Below are positions 7,886 through 32,400 of a stretch of 64,000 nucleotides of DNA, piece after piece (the stretch's first letter is position 1; each line of letters starts with the position of its first letter). The stretch is taken from IMG/VR virus record IMGVR_UViG_3300045921_000191, positions 32,001 to 96,000 of that record, one strand, 5' to 3'. The notes under the pieces are model-generated. The model made no database searches. It had not been told where the DNA came from and saw only the letters and a list, made by a program, of their open reading frames with translations. This stretch comes from a virus. Made by a program: the position numbers and the translations under genes.

Positions 7886-9052
7886 TCAGTCTCCTTTTTG
7901 GTGCTTAGGTTTGATCTCTTTTATTTTATCAAGCGGCTTACCGTTCCAACAGTGATCATAAAATTCACAGCGCCGACCATATTGCATACAGCTATTAGGA
8001 TTTTTAAAGTTAATCTCGTTTTTCACTGCTACTAGAACATTTGAATAGTCTTCCATCTGGGAATCCAGCTCAGACTCTTTCATAGTTTTAGTAAGCAATT
8101 GACAAACAGCTTTTAACTTAGGGATCAAATAAGAGCCTTTACAATCTTTTTGAGTACAATTTCTAGCTTTGCTACCGTGAGGTCGAACGTGTCCGCAAGT
8201 GTCGCAGCTAACCGAGTCGTTCTTCAATTTCTTGACAAGAACAAGGTAGCCTACATCTAATGAACCGATCTTCTTACTAAGCGCTGAAGCGTACGTTTTT
8301 AATTGTTCACTCGTATTGATATTATGGGAAGTATACTCTGCTGCGGCAGTTTTGCAATCTAAAACTACAGGAAACTCTTTACTCTTAAATTTAACTACGT
8401 AATCCACGTATCCGACAATCTCATCGCCGTCGTTATTGGTAATAGAAACTCTATATTGACAAGCAGGGACTCCATCGATCTCTACCAGATATTCAAAATC
8501 TGGCATAATATCATTCCACAATGCGGTCAGCATTAGAGCTGCTCGTTCTGCTAGAGATAGCCAGTGAATTCTTGCATAAAAGCGTTTTCGTTCCAAGCTA
8601 ACTTTATATCCGTTATCGAAGTCTGAATAAATCTCTGCAATAATAGACTGCCAAGTAACTACTTTAGCTTTGCCGTCTTTATCTGGACGAGTAGCGTTAA
8701 ACTCTTCTGGAACTAATTCCGTTGCCCAATCTTTGATAAGATCGGCATGTTGAACCAATAATGACTCGTCTAAGTCTGATTTAAAGTATTCTACTTCTGG
8801 ATTATCAAAAATTGGAGAAGCTCTGGATGGCTGATCTACGTTCTCGGTTTCCCAGTTACGATCAAACTCTGCAATGGAATCTTTCAAATCGGCGCCCTTG
8901 AACATAGCAGTAACGCCCGCCTCGACAGCCGTTCCAAATGCAAAGTACGAGGGACGGCCAGTTGACTGGTACTGTTTTGAAAGATAGTACTTAGTAGGAC
9001 ACGCCTTAAACGTGTTGGCCGCTGAGTAGCTTAATTTGACTGGCTTACTCAT
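7886..9052 (-). CDS. Cas4/RecB-like PD-(D/E)XK exonuclease
   Basis: LSYSAANTFKACP; GYVD...VLDCKT; QLKTY; C-terminal C-x6-C-x5-C; extra CDTC..C..C insertion. Confidence 0.85.
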   Translation of the reverse strand: MSKPVKLSYSAANTFKACPTKYYLSKQYQSTGRPSYFAFGTAVEAGVTAMFKGADLKDSIAEFDRNWETENVDQPSRASPIFDNPEVEYFKSDLDESLLVQHADLIKDWATELVPEEFNATRPDKDGKAKVVTWQSIIAEIYSDFDNGYKVSLERKRFYARIHWLSLAERAALMLTALWNDIMPDFEYLVEIDGVPACQYRVSITNNDGDEIVGYVDYVVKFKSKEFPVVLDCKTAAAEYTSHNINTSEQLKTYASALSKKIGSLDVGYLVLVKKLKNDSVSCDTCGHVRPHGSKARNCTQKDCKGSYLIPKLKAVCQLLTKTMKESELDSQMEDYSNVLVAVKNEINFKNPNSCMQYGRRCEFYDHCWNGKPLDKIKEIKPKHQKGD

Positions 9053-10713
9053 TCCAGTCCCATCATAGCCAAGGGATTAGGCTTACCTTCGTTTGAGCTA
9101 GCGGCAAGAACTACCGCACCACCCGTGGTTAGTAGTAGGCCAGCAATTGATACTGCGTTCTCAAGAGCAGATTTGGCCACTTTTGCTGGATCAACAATTC
9201 CAGATTCCAAAAGATTGCAAAAGACTTTACGCCTAGCGTCAAATCCTTTGCCAAGTTCAGTCGATCCTAATTGATGAAGGATTACCGCAGGATCAAGGCC
9301 AGTATTAGTAATGATTTGTTTAATCGGTGCTTGAAGAGCTTCTTGCATGATCTTTCCAGCAATCGTATTGGTATTGATTTCTTTTGAAATCTCAAAGAAA
9401 GTCGATCCTCCGCCTGGAAGAATACCTTCTTGAATAGCCACGCGAGCTGCACAAAGCGCGTCCTCGATACGATCTTTTTTCTCAAGCATCTCAAGTTCGG
9501 TCTCACCGCCTGCGCGAATAATAGCAATACCGCCTACAAGCTTACCAATTCGGATACGAAGATTTTCTTGATCGAATTCGTATTGTTTAATCTCAAGGCC
9601 CTTTTTAAGATCATCCACGCGAGATAGAATTGCTTCCTCATCACCTGCACCTTTAAAAATCACAGTCTCTTCTGATCCAACTTCAACTTTATCGCAAGAA
9701 CCTAAATCGTCAGAAGAACCATCTTTTAGTTCTCTAATTCCTTTAGAAAAAACTTTACCGCCTGTAAGAACCGCGATGTCTTCCAAAATCTCAGTGATTG
9801 CATTGGGACTTCCGTCAAATGGAGCTTTGATAGCTACGATTGGAAGTTTACCTTGAACTCGGTTAGCTAGGAGCATGTTCTTTACGTCATCTGAGAAATC
9901 AGAAGCGATAATAAGAAATGGAACTGGTTTTTGAATTTGACCACTTTGAGGGTCAACTTCCATTACACTCATCATGAGTTTTGCAAGCTCATGAAGCTCT
10001 GAAAGTTTGCCGTTATAAAGAAGCACTGCTGGCTTCTCTAGCTGCGCACAGTCTTTAACCTTGTCAGTAACAAAGTGTGTTCCGAATGGTCCAAAAGACT
10101 TCCAGCCCTTTTTGTAGACCGCACCTTGTACGACACTCAACTCAGTATGACGTGAGTTGGCGTCCTCGACTGTAACGTGCCCATCTTCTCCGACTTGCTC
10201 TAGAGCATCGGAAACGATTTGAGCGATCTCTTCTTCTCCGTTCGCGGAGATTTTAGCAACGTTATAAACGTCCTTGAGACCCACTGGGATTTTACGCTCA
10301 TCGATTTTTGCGATGATTTCGTTTTTAATAGCTTTGAGTTCGTCGTAAAGCTGAATACCGTTCATTCCACGAGCGAGTTGCGAATAGCCAGCTTTAAAAA
10401 TAGCTTCGGCAAGTACAATGGCGGTAGTCGTTCCGTCGCCAGCTTGATTTACGGTATTCTTAGCAACTTGAAGAACGGCTTTAGCTATGGTGGACATAGC
10501 GTGATCTTTAAAATCTACAGATTCAGCGACAGTCACTCCGTCTTTAGTAATGAGTGGTCCGATTGGCGAGCCGTCTGAATTTTGCCCAGTGCGCTGGATA
10601 ATAATAGGATTCCCACCTGGGCCTAGGGTCGCTTTAACAACGCTTGCCATCTCTTCTACAGCAGCGAGAGCTTTCTTTTTGGAAGCATCAGAACTGAGAA
10701 TTGTCTTGCTCAT
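9049..10713 (-). CDS. groEL: Phage-encoded group I chaperonin GroEL
   Basis: TLGPGG, ITKDGVTVA, AGDGTTTA, KDRIEDAL, EGILPGGG, GIVDPAKV. Confidence 0.95.
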   Translation of the reverse strand: MSKTILSSDASKKKALAAVEEMASVVKATLGPGGNPIIIQRTGQNSDGSPIGPLITKDGVTVAESVDFKDHAMSTIAKAVLQVAKNTVNQAGDGTTTAIVLAEAIFKAGYSQLARGMNGIQLYDELKAIKNEIIAKIDERKIPVGLKDVYNVAKISANGEEEIAQIVSDALEQVGEDGHVTVEDANSRHTELSVVQGAVYKKGWKSFGPFGTHFVTDKVKDCAQLEKPAVLLYNGKLSELHELAKLMMSVMEVDPQSGQIQKPVPFLIIASDFSDDVKNMLLANRVQGKLPIVAIKAPFDGSPNAITEILEDIAVLTGGKVFSKGIRELKDGSSDDLGSCDKVEVGSEETVIFKGAGDEEAILSRVDDLKKGLEIKQYEFDQENLRIRIGKLVGGIAIIRAGGETELEMLEKKDRIEDALCAARVAIQEGILPGGGSTFFEISKEINTNTIAGKIMQEALQAPIKQIITNTGLDPAVILHQLGSTELGKGFDARRKVFCNLLESGIVDPAKVAKSALENAVSIAGLLLTTGGAVVLAASSNEGKPNPLAMMGLE

Positions 10714-10997: not shown

Positions 10998-12650
10998 GTG
11001 ATAAAGATAACAGTTTCTAACTCATATTGTCAAGTGGAAAACTCGACGACTTTTCAGGATGAGAAGTTTGCGAAGGAATTGTCGTATCTTGATCAGAATG
11101 TTAATTTTCAATACAACAAAAACCTAAGATACATCAAAAGCTTAAATGACAAGATTTCGTCGGATCGTTATAACTCAGCCGCTAAAGTAGGCTTTCAGAG
11201 TGAACTAAAAAGAATGCTATTCTTAACTCGCGAGCTTGAAAAGGCTCGCGTTATCTTTCTTTATAAAAATAAGAAGTTCCCTTCTGGACTTTTGCCCAGA
11301 TTCCTTGACTATTTATATTCTGAAAAAATAGACGTAGAAGTTCTTGACAAACGTAAAAAGCCTAAAACTAATCAAATTAAATTCGTGACTCAAAAGCCTC
11401 TGCCACAACTTCGTTACTGCCAAAAAGATGCCGTGAAACTCGCTGTTAGCGAGGGTCGTGGAATTCTAGTAATGCCAACTGGAGTTGGTAAGACAGTAAC
11501 TGCGGTTAAGATTGTCTGGGAACTAGGTCTTCCTACTTTGTTCGTGGCTCCTAGTAAATCAATTGCTGAAATGATGTTTGACACTATGACTGAGTTTTTT
11601 GGTAAAGGGAAAGTGGAAAAGATCACCTCGAAGACCAAAGTCACTAAGAAGCCAATTGGCATCTGTAATATTCAAGGACTTATCAAGGTTCCACCTTCAG
11701 CCGTGAAACAGTTTCAAGTAGTTGTAATTGATGAATTTCATCATTGTCTAGTAGGTGGGACTAAGCTTTTTACTGATAAAGGGGTAAAAAGTATTAAACA
11801 AGTCTTTGATTTTGAAGAGGAGATTAAAGTATTAAGCTTTGACAAACAAGCCAAGCAGTTTGAATTTAAAAAGGTTTTGAATAAATTTGAATACAACGCT
11901 CCTACCAGCTTTATTAAAATCCATTTAGATAATGGTAAAAAGTTAGTTCTTACAGAAGACCATTTAGTATTAACGAATACAGGTTATAAAAAAGCAAAAG
12001 AACTCAAATGCACCGATATTCTAATCGACGGTAAATATACGTGCTTTATTTGCAATAAAAATTTTGAAGATGAGTGTTCTTTAGGCGGTCATATAGCTGG
12101 GCACTTGACTCCTACGGAAGTTAAATTGGAAAATGCTAAACGAATGCTAGCGAGTCCAAATTGGAATTCAGAAAAGGCTAGAAAATTAAATAGCAAATCT
12201 AAAATGGGTGATAAAAATCCTTCAAAAAGGCCAGAAGTTAGAAAGAAAAAAAGCGAATCTCAAAAGCGCTGGTTTAACTCCCTATCTTCTGAGGAAAAAG
12301 CTTGGAGAATTCAAACATTCGTAAATGCACCACTTCAAGGACTTAGAAAAGGTCCTACCTCTTTGGAAAGAAGAATCATAGAATTAAATATTAAGGATCT
12401 TAGATTTGTTGGAGACGGAAGTTTGTGGTTTAAATCTAAAAATAGATATCTAAATCCAGATTTCATAAAAGGAAATAAAGTTATTGAAGTAGGAGATGTG
12501 GAATTTTGGCATTCACAGGAAGATATAGAAGAAAGAATCAAATTACTAGCTAATGTAGGTCTAGAGTGTTTATATCTCACTTCTGATCAATTAAAATTGT
12601 TAAATAATGATGATCTTAAGAAAGTTGTACAGGAATATCTAAATGGCTAA
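10998..12650 (+). CDS. SF2 (DExH, UvsW/XPB-like) helicase N-terminal half fused to an N-intein and homing endonuclease
   Basis: LRYCQ, Walker A MPTGVGKT, IDEFHH, then intein block A (CLVGGT) at residue 250 and block B (LTEDH), followed by C2H2 finger, NUMOD3-like and Vsr-like nuclease segments. Confidence 0.9.
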   Translation: MIKITVSNSYCQVENSTTFQDEKFAKELSYLDQNVNFQYNKNLRYIKSLNDKISSDRYNSAAKVGFQSELKRMLFLTRELEKARVIFLYKNKKFPSGLLPRFLDYLYSEKIDVEVLDKRKKPKTNQIKFVTQKPLPQLRYCQKDAVKLAVSEGRGILVMPTGVGKTVTAVKIVWELGLPTLFVAPSKSIAEMMFDTMTEFFGKGKVEKITSKTKVTKKPIGICNIQGLIKVPPSAVKQFQVVVIDEFHHCLVGGTKLFTDKGVKSIKQVFDFEEEIKVLSFDKQAKQFEFKKVLNKFEYNAPTSFIKIHLDNGKKLVLTEDHLVLTNTGYKKAKELKCTDILIDGKYTCFICNKNFEDECSLGGHIAGHLTPTEVKLENAKRMLASPNWNSEKARKLNSKSKMGDKNPSKRPEVRKKKSESQKRWFNSLSSEEKAWRIQTFVNAPLQGLRKGPTSLERRIIELNIKDLRFVGDGSLWFKSKNRYLNPDFIKGNKVIEVGDVEFWHSQEDIEERIKLLANVGLECLYLTSDQLKLLNNDDLKKVVQEYLNG

Positions 12651-12786
12651 GATTTTGAAAATAGAAAGAATTGCAAATTCTTACGAACTAGATCAATACA
12701 GAACTCGTCGCATTTATTCTAAAGTATACGATATCGAAGTAGAAAAGAATTCAAATTTTGTTGCAAATGGAATAGTAGTTCATAAC
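11745..12786 (+). mobile_element. Split intein (IntN plus HEN 11745-12650; IntC 12643-12786) inserted just after helicase motif II
   Basis: Cys1 at 11745; VYDIEV..NSNFVANGIVVHN|S ends at 12786; removal restores DEFHH-SAAETY; segment is more AT-rich than its flanks. Confidence 0.9.
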
Positions 12787-13473
12787 TCAGCCGCTGAAAC
12801 ATATCAAGAGGTTAACGAGAAGCTTTTGAACGAGGCCTACTTCCGCATTGGTCTAACGGCCACTAACTTCAGGAACGACGGCGCAGATCTTGCACTAGAG
12901 GCTGTTTTGAGCGAAGTCCTTTATGAATATACGGTTAAGCAAGCTTTTGAAGATGGCTTCTTGGTTAGGCCCAAATTTAACATTATACCTATCTCATTCC
13001 CCTCTGAGGGCAAATATCAGGACGTTTACCGCCAAGGTATCGTTGAGAACGTTCAGCGCAACAGAGTCATCTCAGAGCTTGCTATAGAGCATAAGAAAGA
13101 CTCTGTGATTATTTTAGTTCAACAAATTGAACATGGGGAATTGTTAAAAGGTTTGATTCCAGGTTCAGAGTTTATTAATGGTCAGGAAAAAGACACCATG
13201 CGTCAGAAGGCTATGGCCGACTTTCGTAAAGGAAAGCTCAAGTGTTTGATTGGTACTTCAGTGATTGGAGAAGGTGTTGACCTTCCAATTGCAAACGTGC
13301 TCATCATGGCTGGTGGTGGAAAGGCCAGGAGTCAGATCATTCAGAATATCGGTAGAGTATTAAGACTTTATCCTGGTAAAGATGGTGCTTTGATTTACGA
13401 CTTCACAGATCAAGATGGCTCGTTTCTTCAAGAGCATTCAATGCTTCGTCGTGAAGTTTATTCAGGATATTAA
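12643..13473 (+). CDS. C-intein fused to the SF2 helicase C-terminal half
   Basis: 48-aa IntC, then motif III GLTAT, motif V GEGVDLP and motif VI QNIGRVLR; AGGA RBS at 12631-12634. Confidence 0.9.
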   Translation: MAKILKIERIANSYELDQYRTRRIYSKVYDIEVEKNSNFVANGIVVHNSAAETYQEVNEKLLNEAYFRIGLTATNFRNDGADLALEAVLSEVLYEYTVKQAFEDGFLVRPKFNIIPISFPSEGKYQDVYRQGIVENVQRNRVISELAIEHKKDSVIILVQQIEHGELLKGLIPGSEFINGQEKDTMRQKAMADFRKGKLKCLIGTSVIGEGVDLPIANVLIMAGGGKARSQIIQNIGRVLRLYPGKDGALIYDFTDQDGSFLQEHSMLRREVYSGY

Positions 13474-13773
13474 AAGGTAAGCTATAGCTTTATTTAGAAG
13501 CTTTTCGCTGTCTTTAAACATTCCTAGACCTACGTTGCATTTTCTGCACAATAGGCCTCTAGTTTTGCCAGACTGGCGATTGTGATCTATACAGATCTTA
13601 TCTTTTGGAACAAAATCTTCGCAGATAGCGCATTTTCCTAGCTGAATTTCATACATTTTTTCAAAGTCTTCAAGACTGATCTTATATAGGTTTTTTAATT
13701 TAGACTTCCTGGCAGCTTTGGCTTGCGCAAGCGCAGGACGTTTGGAACACGATTTACACCAAGACTGTAAACC
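13462..13773 (-). pseudogene. 5'-truncated endonuclease VII-like HNH homing endonuclease
   Basis: Frame reads GLQSWCKSC...KLKNLYKISLEDFEKMYEIQLGKCAIC...IDHNRQSGKTRGLLCRKCNVGLG. In-frame TAA at 13774-13776, and the first ATG is internal (13656). Confidence 0.7.
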
Positions 13774-13851: not shown

Positions 13852-14259
13852 TTACGGCTGTTCAGGCCATTCAGGGTTCAGAGGATCTAGAGTATTCTCA
13901 GGAAGATCGCGAAGGTTTTGACGATAGGTCGCCCAAAGAGCTTTATCTTCAACTGAAAGAGGTGAATCAGGCAACTGAGTCCAATCACAAGCGCTCAAAC
14001 GCGTGTTGCGTTCTGCACGAAGTGAGTTCATATCTTGCTCAGCAGCAGCCTCTTGAAGTGCAGCATCGACTTGCAGTTCCAACTCGTTTTCTTCATTTAG
14101 AACAGCTTTCATTGCTCTGGGATCGCCAGAAGCTAATTCCAAGTGAGCAAACTGTTCAGGTTGACCCCAAGGTCCACCATACATTCCCTGATTGGCTTCT
14201 TCGGCATCATACCAGCTTGCGATTTCGAGGGTTTCTTTGTTTACGATTGCTACTTTCAT
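13852..14259 (-). CDS. Tail fibre assembly chaperone
   Basis: LRAERNTRLSACDWTQLPDSPL...WATYRQNLRDLP...WPEQP signature. Confidence 0.85.
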   Translation of the reverse strand: MKVAIVNKETLEIASWYDAEEANQGMYGGPWGQPEQFAHLELASGDPRAMKAVLNEENELELQVDAALQEAAAEQDMNSLRAERNTRLSACDWTQLPDSPLSVEDKALWATYRQNLRDLPENTLDPLNPEWPEQP

Positions 14260-14318: not shown

Positions 14319-15383
14319 TTACAATTCTGCGTCGAACCCAAAATTTGATATACTTATAAGAGCAGCGTCAGTCAGACCATGACCACTTTTTGTCGCAGTA
14401 ATTTCCAAGTCACAAGCATTAAGAGATGCCGTGTAAGCACTTAGACTAAGTGAAAAACCACTTTGGGCAGTATTGCCAACAGTTCTTACTTGCCAGTTAG
14501 TTCCTTCAACATTGTTTATAAGTGTAGGGGTTGCTCTCATTGGGACTGGAACACGCAATCCGAAGACGATGGTGTTAGCGGTAGGCACACATCCAGCGCG
14601 GTTTCCGAGGTTGCCGTTAGTGAGGAAGGAACAATATCTCTGACAAAGAGCCAGTTCATCAGCGTAGCTTTCTCCAGCCAAAGAGAAAGGAGCCGTCTCA
14701 GTTCCAACATTTAACATTACTTGAGCAATTCTAAAATTAGTCGCTCCAGTATTAACGCCGTTGACCTGATTGGATGTGGCGTATAGGTTTCCAGATTGCC
14801 AAACGTCTTGTGCGGCTTGAAACGAAGTTCCTGCGGCTAATATAAAGCGTAGCCAAAGGCCGACGCCGTTGGAATAGTTCCACGTTCCTGCGGACGGAGT
14901 GGCTTTTAAAGGTATTACAATCTTTTCCCAAGTATTGGCTGAAGTGATTGTGTACTCTTTAATGTAATTCAAATCTAACGCAGAATTAGCCAAAGAGACG
15001 CAATAAATTCCAGGAATAGTTGCTTTTACCCAAAAACTGAGTACCATTGGTTTTTGAGCAATTCTTGCAAAATTAAAACCTTCAATTTTTTGAGCAAGAT
15101 ACATGAGATCGCCAGCAGCAATTGAAGTATCTGGGGTTGTCAAATTTAGTCGAAGTGATCTAGTAGATACTACTCCTGACTCGGCAAAAGTTGGAACGTC
15201 GGTATCCTGAGAAACCGTATGAACCATTGCTCCAACTTTATGATATACCCATCTATCCAAAGAATAAGCCCCATTTGCTATTGCTGCAAAACTAGTTCCT
15301 CGCTGGGCGAAGTCCATATTACCGTTAATAATAAAATTTTGAAGAGGATTATCTCTTAGATCTAAATTTAAAATTTTAGCCAT
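14319..15383 (-). CDS. Tail fibre / receptor-binding protein, paralog 1 (CBM-like)
   Basis: NFIINGNMDFAQRG...LSFWVK...ELALCQRY...DAEL; next to the fibre chaperone. Confidence 0.7.
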   Translation of the reverse strand: MAKILNLDLRDNPLQNFIINGNMDFAQRGTSFAAIANGAYSLDRWVYHKVGAMVHTVSQDTDVPTFAESGVVSTRSLRLNLTTPDTSIAAGDLMYLAQKIEGFNFARIAQKPMVLSFWVKATIPGIYCVSLANSALDLNYIKEYTITSANTWEKIVIPLKATPSAGTWNYSNGVGLWLRFILAAGTSFQAAQDVWQSGNLYATSNQVNGVNTGATNFRIAQVMLNVGTETAPFSLAGESYADELALCQRYCSFLTNGNLGNRAGCVPTANTIVFGLRVPVPMRATPTLINNVEGTNWQVRTVGNTAQSGFSLSLSAYTASLNACDLEITATKSGHGLTDAALISISNFGFDAEL

Positions 15384-15392
15384 ATATTCCTC

Positions 15393-16481
15393 TTAAAGTT
15401 CCGCGTCCGCAGTCCAATGCATTTTAATTTGTGCTCCTGCCGTTTGACTGTTAACTAATGCACCAAAATTTCGGTCGTTGGATTCAGAACCTATTGTAAG
15501 AGCTACATCAGAGGCGCCGACTCGGATTTGGTTGACCGCGCCCGTATCTGCACTATAAAGAATAACAGAAGGTGAAGCTCTCTTGCGTACAGCATAAGTA
15601 TTTCCAATTCTAAGTTGACCAGTCGAACCTACGCTGCCCCAATCAGGACCAGCATTGCTTATCGCTGCTGGAACTACATCGATTGCGTAGCTTTTTTCAT
15701 AGTAACGTTGGCAAAGAGCAAGCTCTTCTTGAATGGTTCTTCCTGCGCGAGAAAAGCCAGTGGCCCCCATGCTGGAACCTTCAACCAGAGATACTTGAGC
15801 AAATAGCATATTGTTAGTATTCAAATCCATAATATTTGCAAATGCTGCAGCAGTAGTCGTGTAAAAAGTACCAGTTGACCACGCGTTTAGGCTTCCACCT
15901 TGCCAAGTTGTTCCTTGGGCCGCTGGAGCTAATGTGATTTCCATTGCAAGTTGATTATCAAACAAGTAAGCCCCAGTGCTTTCAAAAGTCACTGCTACAG
16001 TTTTGAATTCCCAAGTATTAGCGGCGCTGATTGCAAATGTTGAAATTAAATTTCTATTTGGGCCAGAAACCGTATTAAAAGCTACTGGAAAAGTTCCTGT
16101 CTTAGAGGACTTGACCCAGAAAGATAAAGTACAAGCTTTTCCATGAAGACGTTGGTAGTCTTGACCTTCCATGCGGTAGGTAAGAGGACGCACAAGATCT
16201 CCAGCAGCAGGAGAGGTAAGAGCAGTTAAACAATTGAAGCGGTAGCTGTATAAAGACGCGTTTCCCGATTGTGCAGGAGTAGGAACATCAGTAGATCGCA
16301 GAATTGAAAAGTTTTTAGAAGTAGCTCCAGTGCCGTAACAGCTCATGCGATCTGCCGTATAAAGGTATACCGTAGAAGCCGTATTCACTGTAGTAGTTGT
16401 GCCTACCACTCGTTGCCAAAAATCAAAATTACCATTTATGATAAAGTTTCGATCATTTCTATCAATTCTAGGTGTTCCCAT
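15393..16481 (-). CDS. Tail fibre / receptor-binding protein, paralog 2
   Basis: NFIINGNFDFWQR...LSFWVKS...ELALCQRYYEKSY...HWTADAEL. Confidence 0.7.
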   Translation of the reverse strand: MGTPRIDRNDRNFIINGNFDFWQRVVGTTTTVNTASTVYLYTADRMSCYGTGATSKNFSILRSTDVPTPAQSGNASLYSYRFNCLTALTSPAAGDLVRPLTYRMEGQDYQRLHGKACTLSFWVKSSKTGTFPVAFNTVSGPNRNLISTFAISAANTWEFKTVAVTFESTGAYLFDNQLAMEITLAPAAQGTTWQGGSLNAWSTGTFYTTTAAAFANIMDLNTNNMLFAQVSLVEGSSMGATGFSRAGRTIQEELALCQRYYEKSYAIDVVPAAISNAGPDWGSVGSTGQLRIGNTYAVRKRASPSVILYSADTGAVNQIRVGASDVALTIGSESNDRNFGALVNSQTAGAQIKMHWTADAEL

Positions 16482-29420: not shown

Positions 29421-32400
29421 TTATCCAATAATCAAATCCACATCATCAAGACGGGCTAATTCGCCATCTGCGATGGTGATGTTTTCGGTATGGTTAGAAA
29501 TCTTAACGTCAAATACTCCAGGAATTCCTTGGGCTGCAAATATAATTTCAGACAATACCACGTCTTGACCAACATCCCTAGAGTTCACGTATCCAGTGAT
29601 AGCGCTTGCGATGCTGTTTGTGATTGCGCTTAGGTTAACGCCTTCCTCGGTAGTCACGTCGACGATCAACTTAATCTTGATAAGAACTGGGGAAATTACT
29701 TCAAACTGAGTTCCAGCGGCACCAAGACCAGGAAAGTTATTAGAATCTCGATCTAAACCGTCAATAGTCCACTGAGCTAATTGAATCAATCCAGTGAAAT
29801 ATTTGTAACCGTCAATACCCTCTATTTGAGTGGTAGAGAAATTTAGACCATTCAAGTCACGAATTGCCGCACTGAGTTGAGGAGTAAATCCAGAAACATC
29901 AATCGGAGTATTTGTTTCGTCGTTTAGGGAAATAGTGTAAGGGGCTGAAGTTCCTACTACGTCTACTATAAATGCTCGCTTAGAAATTCTAAAAGACGTT
30001 CCAATAACTAATGGGTTTGGAGCACTATCGGTTAAAACTATTTCTCCAGTAGCATTATTATATGCTGCCACTGTTGTAACATGTCCTGCGTTTAGTCCTG
30101 ACAAAATCTCTAGTTCTAATCCGTCAAAATATGCGGGTAGTCCAGAAATCAAAGAGGTCGCGATTAAAGTGTCGTATGGCGCTACTGCATCACCAGTGGT
30201 AATTGTAGAGTCTACCGTTAACAAGACTGGTAAACCTTTTGCTAATCCAGCTTTTGAATTGGTAGTAACGTCGTTTACTGGAGCGCCTGCAACAATGCTT
30301 TCGATAGCAATGCCGATTCTATTACCAGACCCGCCCGTAACAAATACTTTTCCAGAAGAGCCAGGAGTCTTAGTGGATAGCTGTACCAGGTCGCCTTTAA
30401 TACCAGTAGCTTCTGCTTTAGCGACTACCGATATAGTGGTAGTGTTTAGATCGTTTAACAGCGTTACCACGTTGCTCGCAGTTCTGGGAACTATAGCAAA
30501 CGTATCCCCTGCCGCGATTGTGATCGGTGCTGTTGAAGGGAATATAGAAGTCGTGGTAAATAGTCCAGTGACCCCAGTATAAGTAAGTACGTATTGAAGT
30601 GTTCCTTCATTTGCTCCACTAGTCCAATAAATCCAAAAATCGGTAAAGAAGTTTGAGGTTAAATATTTTGCGCCCAAAGCTGGAACTGCAAAAGAATTTG
30701 ACCCACCAGTAACAACCTCTTCAGCAATACTCAAAGGAACTGAAAAAGTTTTATTAGTATTGTCGCCATCGAAAATCGCAACTAGAGTTTGATCGGGTCC
30801 GAGAGTAAAGCCTAATGCTCCAACGACTCCATCTCTATCTGAGTTAGAGGAAGTTAGATATGCAGTATTAGTTTCTTGGTTGTTTTGTTCTTCGGTAGAA
30901 AAGGCAAGAACTCCATTTGCCGAACCGCCAAGAATCTGAATAGAGCCAGCATCCGTAAAATTAGTTGTGCGAAGTCTTACTTTTCCGTTAGACAGTACTT
31001 CTGAAGTACCGCCGAGTAGTTCATCATTGATGGCTGCCACAACTTCTAAAGCGAATACGTTAGTGGGATCTGCAAAATCAGAAGCGTGTACAAATTGAAC
31101 TACTTGAGACAGTATGAACCTGTCTCCTAAAGCAATAGGATTAGTAAATCCAGTAGTGGTTTGAAGCTGGCCGTTACTAGGATTATATGCGGCTACGTAG
31201 CTTACTTCTCCCAAGTTATTCCCACTGATCCATTCGATATGGAATCCAACAAAGAAATTAGTATCAAAATCAATTAAAGAAGTTGATCTGAAAGTATCAT
31301 AAGCGGCTACAAAATCTCCAGTAGTAACAGTGGCTTCGATTCCGCCATCAATTCTTACGATGAGAGATGAAGAAGCTCCTAGGATAGAAAAATCAAAAGT
31401 TTCAATAGTAGAATCTACGAACGCACGAGTATTCACGCTGCCCGCAGTTAAACTATCTCCGACGACAAGTGGGACGGCTAGTTCGATCTGACCGTTAGAT
31501 CTATTAAGAGTATAATCTTTGTTCTGGCCTTCAACTAACTCGCTAAAGTTCATTTTAGTGCCTGCAACGTTAGTGTGAGTACCGCCTCGATAAACTTCTG
31601 TAAGATATAATTGCGTATCACTTTCTATAGATTCTATTTTAGTCCACGAGCCTGTTCCGTCTAGCCCAGCTTTAATCCATTGGCCTTCTTCTAACTCGGT
31701 AGTGAATTGTGTTCCAGTTCCGCTAATAGATTTGTTGCCATAAGTTGTGGATATTTGACCAGAGATAGACTCGGCTGTGCAATAACCCATAGCTACTGCG
31801 CCAGCGCCTCCAAGAACTTGAATCTTAGAATCTGCGCTATTTTCTTTTTCAGAAAGCAAAAGCACTCTAGTACCGTTTACTGCGAGTTCGGCTGAAGACA
31901 AATTGAGTTCTGTTTGAATCCTAATCAACGCTTCCGAAGCTAATCCTTGAGCTGGGTTTGCAAAGTCGGTTGGAGCAAAACTAATTACTTCAGTTTCTAC
32001 TTTATCCCCGTTTGCTGCAATTTCCATCTGAGGAGAATTCCAAATAACTAAATCCCCAGTGCCGCCGCCAGTTGGTGCGTAATCTGTTTCTAGGATCAGT
32101 TTAAAATTATCTACTACGGTCTTAACTTTTCTATATGATGTATCTGGATCAGATGAAAACTTAACATAATCTCCTGGAGATACTATAGAAGGAAAAGGTT
32201 CAGTTCCAGCTACTAATTTAGTAACAATTCTGGAACTAGGAGTTACAGTAAAATCGTTATCAGAGGTTGTGACAACTGATGCTGAGAAATCGAAAGGTTG
32301 CGCTGCACTAATTAAGGAAGCAGTTAATCCGTCTTTATTGAGAATTTTATCATTCTTATAAAGTTTAAGAGTAAATACCTGTCGTTCTGGGAAATTTAAA

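Follow-up and report, generated by a model that had tools for sequence, protein, structure and literature searches.

How is a phage helicase made when its gene is broken in two inside an intein, and is such a break a property of the phage or an accident of sequencing? The question is raised by a locus in a stretch of 64,000 nucleotides (nt), positions 32,001 to 96,000 of the IMG/VR virus record IMGVR_UViG_3300045921_000191, which we call the window and in whose coordinates all features are given. At positions 10,998 to 13,473 two open reading frames (ORFs) share one superfamily 2 (SF2) helicase; ORF1 joins the N-terminal half of the helicase, the N-terminal half of an intein (IntN) and a nuclease in a single chain, and ORF2 joins the C-terminal half of the intein (IntC) to the remainder of the helicase. 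We find that the locus very probably represents a naturally split class 1 intein in the sole XPB/UvsW/D10-type SF2 helicase gene of a complete phage genome, a two-ORF homing element whose host protein would be made by trans-splicing.

Fractured genes of related design are known. In the 26 fractured loci reported by Dassa et al. 2009 (PMC2677866; Dassa, London, Stoddard, Schueler-Furman & Pietrokovski), the two intein halves always flank an endonuclease gene that stands free. A preliminary description of the present locus, drawn from its sequence, had stated that described fractured phage genes carry the endonuclease as a separate ORF, and in that study this is true of 26 of 26 loci. What appears to be new here is a conserved half-way layout, in which the nuclease is still joined to IntN, standing between the contiguous and the three-ORF forms; it is not a new kind of system.

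Two overlapping reading frames carry one helicase and the halves of one intein

ORF1 (10998-12650, plus strand) encodes 550 amino acids (aa) from a GTG start, and its homologues share the start point M-I/A-K-I. Its first 249 codons (10998..11744, plus strand) form the N-extein, the N-terminal helicase half with motifs I to II, including a Walker A motif PTGVGKT and, at aa 245-249, DEFHH; this half is recognised by Pfam and is colinear with uninterrupted helicases. Directly after DEFHH stands Cys250 (codon 11745-11747), the first residue of IntN (aa 250-345; 11745..12032, plus strand), whose block B motif TEDH is T319-E-D-H322 and whose assignment relies on Pfam, an alignment of homologues and a fold match. 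Some 205 residues follow IntN before the TAA stop codon at 12648-12650.

ORF2 (12643-13473, plus strand, 276 aa) lies in the +1 frame relative to ORF1, and the two overlap by 8 nt, ATGGCTAA, at 12643..12650 (plus strand). A Shine-Dalgarno-like AGGA at 12631..12634 (plus strand), inside the end of ORF1, is separated from the ATG of ORF2 by a spacer of 8 nt. The assembled sequence over 12630-12655 reads AAATGGCTAA; because a TAA in the frame of ORF2 stands immediately 5' of its ATG, a longer N-terminus of ORF2 is impossible. ORF2 opens with the 48-aa IntC (12643..12786, plus strand), with blocks F and G as VYDIEV...VVHN and hence a His-Asn end, followed by Ser49 as the +1 Ser. From this serine onwards the C-extein (12787..13473, plus strand; 228 aa and the stop codon) carries helicase motifs III-VI. 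The predicted spliced product therefore has 249 + 228 = 477 aa, with the junction DEFHH-SAAETY.

Profile searches divide the locus in the same manner. On ORF1, Pfam finds ResIII (2.8e-21), DEAD (9e-10), Hint and positions 3-96 of Intein_splicing; on ORF2 it finds positions 133-155 of Intein_splicing, its last 23, together with Helicase_C (2e-15) and ERCC3_RAD25_C. The break in the intein thus falls between blocks B and F, the canonical place for an endonuclease to be inserted. The PHROGs collection holds a family of helicase N-terminus plus half intein (phrog_16259) and one of half intein plus helicase C-terminus (phrog_9690), which match ORF1 and ORF2. With motifs I-II in ORF1, motifs III-VI in ORF2 and the RecA1 and RecA2 domains in order, the host protein is an XPB/Rad25-UvsW-type SF2 helicase, and the best relatives of its family profile in the PDB are XPBII, Rad25 and UvsW. 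The locus sits in a complete virus record of 110,655 bp with terminal repeats, and this complete genome contains a single helicase of this type, a single intein and a single nuclease of this type.

Every statement of the preliminary description about the sequence itself (ORF coordinates and frames, overlap, AGGA spacing, motifs, 477-aa product) holds. No promoter or terminator signal exceeding the shuffled background lies between ORF1 and ORF2. Megablast of the helicase region against GenBank phages gave no match, a word-index search with the C-intein (aa 1-60) returned the window's own protein only, and a scan of cellular genome contigs found no relative.

The break is shared by a second assembly and by diverged homologues

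A single extra A in the AAA run at 12641-12643 would suffice to split a contiguous frame, and for this reason independent evidence of the break was sought. Deleting one A from CTAAATGG indeed gives ...Y-L-M-A-K-I-L-K... in a single frame, as expected if a sequencing or assembly error had divided a contiguous intein. Set against this, Logan's separate assembly matches the ORF1 product without a difference over 538 aa, and ORF2 over all 276 aa, so that the assemblies of the Joint Genome Institute (JGI) and of Logan agree on both frames. Five full-length metagenomic homologues have the same chain of helicase N-terminus, IntN and nuclease at 35-43% overall identity, and end at the same terminal Gly. 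After an exhaustive HMMER search had added members, the split clade comprises the window and 10 homologues or fragments from other samples (P0002-6, 8, 9, 11, 101 and 116), and all its chains terminate at that Gly, with the tails YLNG, FING, FIYG, FIDG, FLHG and FLNG.

The residue preceding the terminal Gly is N, Y, D or H only, the four residues with NAT codons. Given that the penultimate residue is always one of these, NAT-GGN always spells ATG in the +1 frame, which amounts to selection on the start codon, visible from the split-clade proteins alone. DNA of the junction points the same way. In a locus about 40% identical (L042) it reads ...ATT AAT GGC TAA / ATG GCT AAA..., the same AATGGCTAA junction, with AAGGAG 7 nt 5' of the ATG; its downstream ORF of 293 aa carries IntC and the helicase C-terminus, the intein ending ...LVSN/S, where the slash marks the splice site. 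Another locus (L085) has the same nine bases, AATGGCTAA, preceding a 36-aa IntC at a DE/CH site. Homologues with the same stop/start overlap, which the preliminary description had proposed to look for, are therefore present in the DNA of L042 and L085, and ten proteins share the Gly end.

The other four of the five matches of the junction pattern scan (L086-L089) were set aside as chance. They are viral contigs in which an unrelated 57-aa ORF, starting MAKILKIETGT..., stands behind AATGGCTAA with no intein or nuclease nearby.

The identical Logan ORFs, the homologues with the same Gly end and the DNA junctions of L042 and L085 make it very unlikely that the split is a sequencing or assembly artefact. 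The proposal that the split lies inside a helicase intein is borne out by the same evidence.

A different explanation would keep the two frames and deny them separate translation: a programmed +1 frameshift at GGC-TAA would yield a contiguous precursor that splices in cis, and the two ORFs would be a recoding site. Skipping the T of TAA gives ...L-N-G-K-I-L-K-I-E..., near the N-H-D/E-x-K-I-L-K-I-E of contiguous relatives and a plausible cis precursor, and three diverged loci agree in all nine bases of AATGGCTAA, the kind of conservation that a recoding signal might show. A frameshift site needs no ATG, yet NAT-GGN keeps one in every member of the split clade. The purine-rich box stands 7-8 nt 5' of the ATG, which is initiation spacing, and 9-10 nt 5' of the GGC codon; the +1 shift of prfB is stimulated by a purine box at a spacing of about 3 nt. 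The junction has neither a slippery run nor local RNA structure (z = 0.43), and a classical fractured locus of the same nuclease family (L041) uses other overlaps with its own ATG. We consider that frameshifting has only a slim chance of being the explanation, and that initiation of ORF2 at its own ATG is the better account.

An intein-free allele defines the ends of the element

If the element inserted into an intact gene, where exactly does it begin and end? The 90% cluster of ORF2 includes a protein of 465 aa (P0155), an allele of this helicase that lacks the intein. Compared with ORF1 (13-249) joined to ORF2 (49-276), it is identical at 452 of 465 positions (97%) with 0 gaps, and its junction reads DEFHN-SAAETY, as against the predicted DEFHH-SAAETY. 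Since this allele aligns without a gap to the product spliced in silico, the element is exactly 11745..12786 (plus strand), 1,042 bp, which is the part missing from P0155. The G+C content falls to 0.28-0.36 exactly across this interval, compared with 0.40-0.44 in the exteins. An uninterrupted homologue (L090), 55% identical over aa 1-477, has IDEFHHSAAETYQEV verbatim across the insertion site, where the helicase of JSF10, a T5-like Vibrio phage, is colinear as well. The in silico joined exteins are thus colinear with intact host helicases (P0155, L090, JSF10), which supports both the intein boundaries and the 477-aa spliced helicase foreseen in the preliminary description. L090 had been a candidate for the 97% allele and was rejected as such, the match of the empty-site pattern turning out to be the 55% homologue. 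Judged by the sequence of P0155, a closely related phage carries the empty site.

The differences between this allele and the spliced product are unevenly placed. All 13 of the 13 lie in the N-extein (P ~1.6e-4 if spread evenly), the 228-aa C-extein being 100% identical, and 5 of the 13 are found in the 17 residues that immediately precede the insertion site (P ~0.0015), including the -1 residue, H249 as against N. This clustering may reflect a one-sided co-conversion tract, or else divergence of the target site and a cleavage-resistant target.

The intein halves have class 1 features and are predicted to pair

The features of a class 1 intein are present, namely Cys1, the T-x-x-H of block B, a terminal Asn and a +1 Ser, and C250, T319 and H322 are invariant in 6 homologues. 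An AlphaFold model of ORF1 aa 250-550 has a mean predicted local distance difference test score (pLDDT) of 86.9, rising above 90 in the last 100 residues. With the first 90 residues of the model, Foldseek finds the N-intein of Npu DnaE (4lx3_A/4qfq_A; root-mean-square deviation 2.3 A, template modelling (TM) score 0.68-0.69) and also NrdJ-1 (8ubs); by sequence, the nearest solved relatives of IntN are NrdJ-1 (E 0.0013) and gp41-1 (E 0.08). For the C-intein, phmmer against PDB sequences finds the C-terminus of the Spl DnaX mini-intein (5.7e-5). The preliminary description had likened the start of IntC to that of gp41-1; gp41-1 is absent from the phmmer listing of the C-intein against the PDB.

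A complex prediction of IntN (aa 240-350) with ORF2 (aa 1-62) scored 0.68, compared with 0.00 for the best of 3 controls; the mark applied to this score is reached by 51 of 78 solved complexes and by 2 of 108 mismatched pairs. The runs have at least 93% of contacts in common and a partner pLDDT of at least 66, and they place ORF2 aa 1-48 on IntN. Because complexes of split DnaE and NrdJ-1 are already solved, passing this mark speaks for likeness to split inteins rather than for binding of this particular pair. In the model, then, IntN and IntC are predicted to form the HINT fold together.

Might the element have ceased to splice, so that the halves dock non-covalently as a two-chain helicase, or the gene is broken and decaying? 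The intein-free allele shows the element to be dispensable for the phage lineage, and the intein of L042 has no penultimate His (...VSN/S). The class 1 catalytic positions (C1, T-x-x-H, terminal N, +1 S) are nevertheless all present, and invariant where they can be compared. In contiguous relatives, where the helicase depends on splicing, the intein likewise ends in SN, so that a penultimate Ser is normal in this family. Intein and nuclease are moreover better conserved than the extein across deep divergence, and the helicase is single-copy in the genome. Loss of splicing is on these grounds unlikely, and we retain trans-splicing as the expected fate of the two chains.

A complete EDxHD nuclease is tethered to the N-intein

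The nuclease follows IntN in frame, with no stop, start or Shine-Dalgarno sequence between them. Its DNA-binding arm (aa 346-440; 12033..12317, plus strand), made of a C2H2-type finger and basic helices, is assigned by weak Pfam C2H2 matches and by alignment, the finger itself spanning aa 347-369 (12036-12104, plus strand); C349 and C352 of the finger are invariant in the aligned homologues. Two free-standing relatives, P0078 and P0103, begin M-Y-x-C-x-x-C where ORF1 has K346-Y-T-C-F-I-C. Given that K346 aligns with their Met1, ORF1 aa 346-550 corresponds to a whole free-standing nuclease minus its Met.

The arm is followed by the EDxHD (Vsr-like) nuclease core (aa 441-550; 12318..12647, plus strand), modelled with pLDDT > 90. 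Foldseek matches this C-terminal part to the catalytic domain of I-Bth0305I (3r3p_A) with probability 1.00 and a TM score (target) of 0.60 over 100 columns. E457, P487-D488-F489 and W504-H505 do not vary across 39 family members, and E497 is almost invariant. E457, D488, H505 and E497 are candidates for the catalytic residues of the EDxHD motif, which in I-Bth0305I include D196, H213 and D222. Pfam did not recognise the core, and in a profile search of PDB sequences helicase matches dominated, owing to the whole proteins in the alignment; the nuclease is for these reasons assigned by fold. In the model it is a complete, intact-looking homing endonuclease made of a zinc finger and an EDxHD domain.

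Within the split clade, mean identity is 58% for the nuclease and 47% for IntN, as against 31% for the N-extein. Nuclease and IntN are thus more conserved than the N-extein, a pattern that movement of the two-ORF element among diverged helicase genes would be expected to produce. Taking together this pattern, the low G+C content and the presence/absence polymorphism at 97% identity, the element behaves, as far as sequence comparison goes, as mobile and selected.

One nuclease family occurs in a series of layouts

Where does a nuclease fused to one half of a split intein come from? This one nuclease family occurs in contiguous inteins, as IntN-nuclease with a separate IntC, as IntN, nuclease and IntC in three ORFs, as free-standing genes and in nuclease-less forms. 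Contiguous inteins with an in-frame EDxHD nuclease were found in helicases and other genes (L003, L004, L005/L040, L030-L033 and L035; P0014, P0015, P0024 and others). They share with the window the order IntN, zinc finger or fingers, EDxHD core, IntC, as well as the insertion region in the helicase; they differ in that the nuclease-IntC border is read through as one chain (...N-H-D/E-x-K-I-L...), so that F-x-x-N-H-D/E-x-K-I-L-K-I-E stands where the split clade has F-I-N-G-stop / M-A-K-I-L-K-I-E. At the other end of the series is a three-ORF fractured locus (L041/L046), in which IntN has its own stop, a free-standing nuclease of 311 aa follows, and the IntC gene overlaps the end of the nuclease gene by 14 nt. 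The nuclease is missing from two further forms. P0101 has the helicase N-terminus, IntN and just 28 more residues before an ...EFING end, that is, the split form minus the nuclease. P0012 is a contiguous helicase of 720 aa whose intein has lost the nuclease core but retains the zinc-finger arm and an IntC like that of the window.

Trees built from the nuclease module recover the split clade as monophyletic (Shimodaira-Hasegawa-like approximate likelihood ratio test (SH-aLRT) support 95-99). It nests inside a cluster of mostly contiguous intein-borne nucleases, beside the contiguous P0024/P0029 (support 89-91), and most free-standing nuclease genes fall in a different cluster. The layout probably arose from a contiguous EDxHD-bearing intein by the gain of a stop and start at the nuclease-IntC border; alternatively, a free-standing nuclease may have been captured in frame. 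The trees count against certainty here, for they are quick and unrooted, the sister relation is not among the starred ones, and the direction of evolution is read into them; descent from a contiguous intein is thus more likely rather than demonstrated. The preliminary description had called the fusion of IntN and nuclease an intermediate between a contiguous and a fully split intein. As a layout it is one, whereas the idea of a one-off transitional accident does not fit a diverged and monophyletic clade.

Other members of the family show further variations. In P0019 and P0037 (also P0013 and P0041) the N-terminus of a large terminase is followed by an N-intein and then by an EDxHD nuclease, a few residues past which the chain stops. 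The P0019/P0037 group is placed elsewhere in the nuclease tree than the split clade, which suggests, from these protein sequences, independent and repeated origins of the split form. Relatives of P0019 and P0037 were sought in viral contigs and none was found, so that the terminase examples stand at the protein level only. In L057 (631-1737) a nuclease-family ORF of 369 aa ends ...FANGS-stop, and its AAT GGC supplies the ATG of a downstream ORF, MALEDLYIG..., that has no intein motif; the restart arrangement may serve intein-less fractured genes too. One helicase ORF (L003:4800-8423) holds two inteins: the first, at DE/CH, carries the EDxHD nuclease, and the second, located ahead of S-A-T-P (motif III), contains a long insert that differs from it. 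The ORF runs off the contig. In a Ski2-like helicase (L004:3831-7385) the EDxHD nuclease of a contiguous intein stands behind at least 4 C2H2 fingers (Pfam zf-C2H2_4, 4 stretches), and the number of zinc fingers differs widely across the EDxHD nuclease family.

Discussion

The expression of the locus can be pictured as follows. ORF1 and ORF2 would be co-transcribed, and ORF2 would initiate, behind AGGA, at its own ATG, which the final two nuclease codons provide (NAT GGC TAA), probably by translational coupling. On the one hand, IntN and IntC would then dock at the canonical endonuclease-insertion site, and Cys250, Thr319/His322, His47-Asn48 and Ser+1 would drive protein trans-splicing, yielding the 477-aa helicase with the junction DEFHH-SAAETY and releasing IntN-nuclease bound to IntC. 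On the other hand, the tethered nuclease would cut intein-free alleles, and homing would spread the whole two-ORF element of 1,042 bp.

Besides the cis precursor that a frameshift would give, one further point weighs against this reading: junction DNA comes from three loci only (the window, L042 and L085), the other homologues being known as proteins.

The closest known systems are the fractured genes of Dassa et al. (gp41-1, NrdJ-1, IMPDH-1 and others). In these, as in the window, a phage gene of DNA metabolism is interrupted within a single locus at the endonuclease-insertion site, and the IntC gene takes its start from the overlapping 3' end of a Vsr-like (EDxHD) nuclease gene; half of their loci have Vsr-like nucleases, and in 15 the nuclease and IntC genes overlap by 6-69 bp (PMC2677866), the overlap here being 8 nt. 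The differences lie in the number of ORFs, three with a free-standing nuclease there and two with the nuclease fused to IntN here, and in the host gene: the fractured enzymes that they name are gp41 helicase, IMPDH, DnaE, NrdA, NrdJ, DNA ligase and terminase (PMC2677866), a list without the SF2 XPB/UvsW-type helicase that is interrupted in the window. As a free-standing endonuclease is lacking, the locus is a close variant of these fractured genes and not a member of them. In step IIIa of their scheme, loss of the flanks of the nuclease gene could bring the nuclease in frame (PMC2677866); this step implies the layout of the window, although no example is shown there, and the layout is a half-step of step IIIa or its reverse.

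Three further systems each share some of these features. In the uvsW region of the cultured Salmonella phage S16 (NC_020416; gp114/gp114.1/gp115) an SF2 helicase is likewise split after motif II, and gp114 aligns with ORF1 aa 83-344, that is, helicase N-terminus and IntN, at only ~24% identity to the window. S16 differs in having three ORFs with a separate middle gene of 291 aa, which the EDxHD nuclease query did not retrieve. The cyanobacterial DnaE split intein (Npu/Ssp) shares the split site and the fold of the N-fragment, but its halves lie at distant loci and have no nuclease, whereas those of the window overlap by 8 nt and a 205-aa nuclease is carried on the C-terminus of IntN. I-Bth0305I (Taylor et al. 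2011, PMC3239194; PDB 3r3p), the prototype EDxHD homing endonuclease, has an N-terminal DNA-binding arm followed by the nuclease, and shares with the ORF1 nuclease this modular architecture and the fold of the C-terminal nuclease; it is free-standing, in a group I intron of recA, in contrast to the nuclease of the window, which lies in the chain of the N-intein with a C2H2-type finger first.

The literature searched, which covered few subscription journals and so cannot prove absence, yielded no description of a natural split intein with a nuclease fused to IntN. According to a 2025 preprint on actinobacteriophage inteins (10.1101/2025.01.02.630785), the split loci of Dassa et al. were the only reported association of Vsr-like nucleases with inteins, to which the preprint adds an antisense case; by that statement the in-frame contiguous EDxHD intein also seems undescribed.

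A question remains, is the half-split layout a passing state or one that persists? We put forward, tentatively and at somewhat less than even chances, a joint reading in which it is a stable mobile architecture in its own right and not fleeting. Its core would be a portable restart cassette, a purine box ... NAT GGC TAA giving M-A-K-I-L-K-I-E, that ensures translation of the downstream half. The two-ORF element would home as a unit, between helicase genes ~30% identical; its source would be a large, apparently undescribed family of contiguous inteins with in-frame EDxHD nucleases; and its products would be nuclease-less split inteins (P0101-like) and re-fused mini-inteins (P0012-like).

Models in which split and nuclease-bearing inteins interconvert (step IIIa of Dassa et al.; Gosselin et al. 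2025 preprint) assume half-way states that had not previously been shown. Here a single nuclease family displays the whole series, contiguous, IntN-nuclease with separate IntC, three separate ORFs, and nuclease-less, and this series together with the 97% intein-free allele makes the order of events and the homing site directly testable. The predicted split intein also has potential as a tool, with a 205-aa cargo on IntN, a Cys1/Ser+1 pair and the native junction HH/S, and its roughly 10 natural variants are raw material for orthogonal protein-ligation tools. The locus should thus concern specialists of inteins and homing endonucleases, as well as those in search of new split-intein tools.

Neighbouring genes

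A 64-aa ORF on the minus strand (13462-13656) runs towards ORF2 and shares the final 12 nt of that gene. Its similarity to endonuclease VII profiles is confined to their C-terminal half (phrog_2914, positions 90-152 of 190, E 5.5e-22), and on this match it may be an HNH/endo VII-type nuclease in truncated or minimal form. A gene for a full-length GroEL-type chaperonin (9049-10713, minus strand; phrog_5725, E 7e-117) lies immediately upstream of the helicase and likewise adjoins the helicase in the intein-free relative L090; after it comes a Cas4/PD-(D/E)XK-like exonuclease gene with a C-terminal Cys cluster (7886-9052, minus strand). On the other side, two adjacent paralogous tail-fibre-like genes (14319-15383 and 15393-16481, both minus strand; phrog_4492) have in common an N-terminal NFIINGN-DF-QRG motif and a C-terminal ...DAEL, and they are followed by a tail-fibre assembly gene at 13852-14259.

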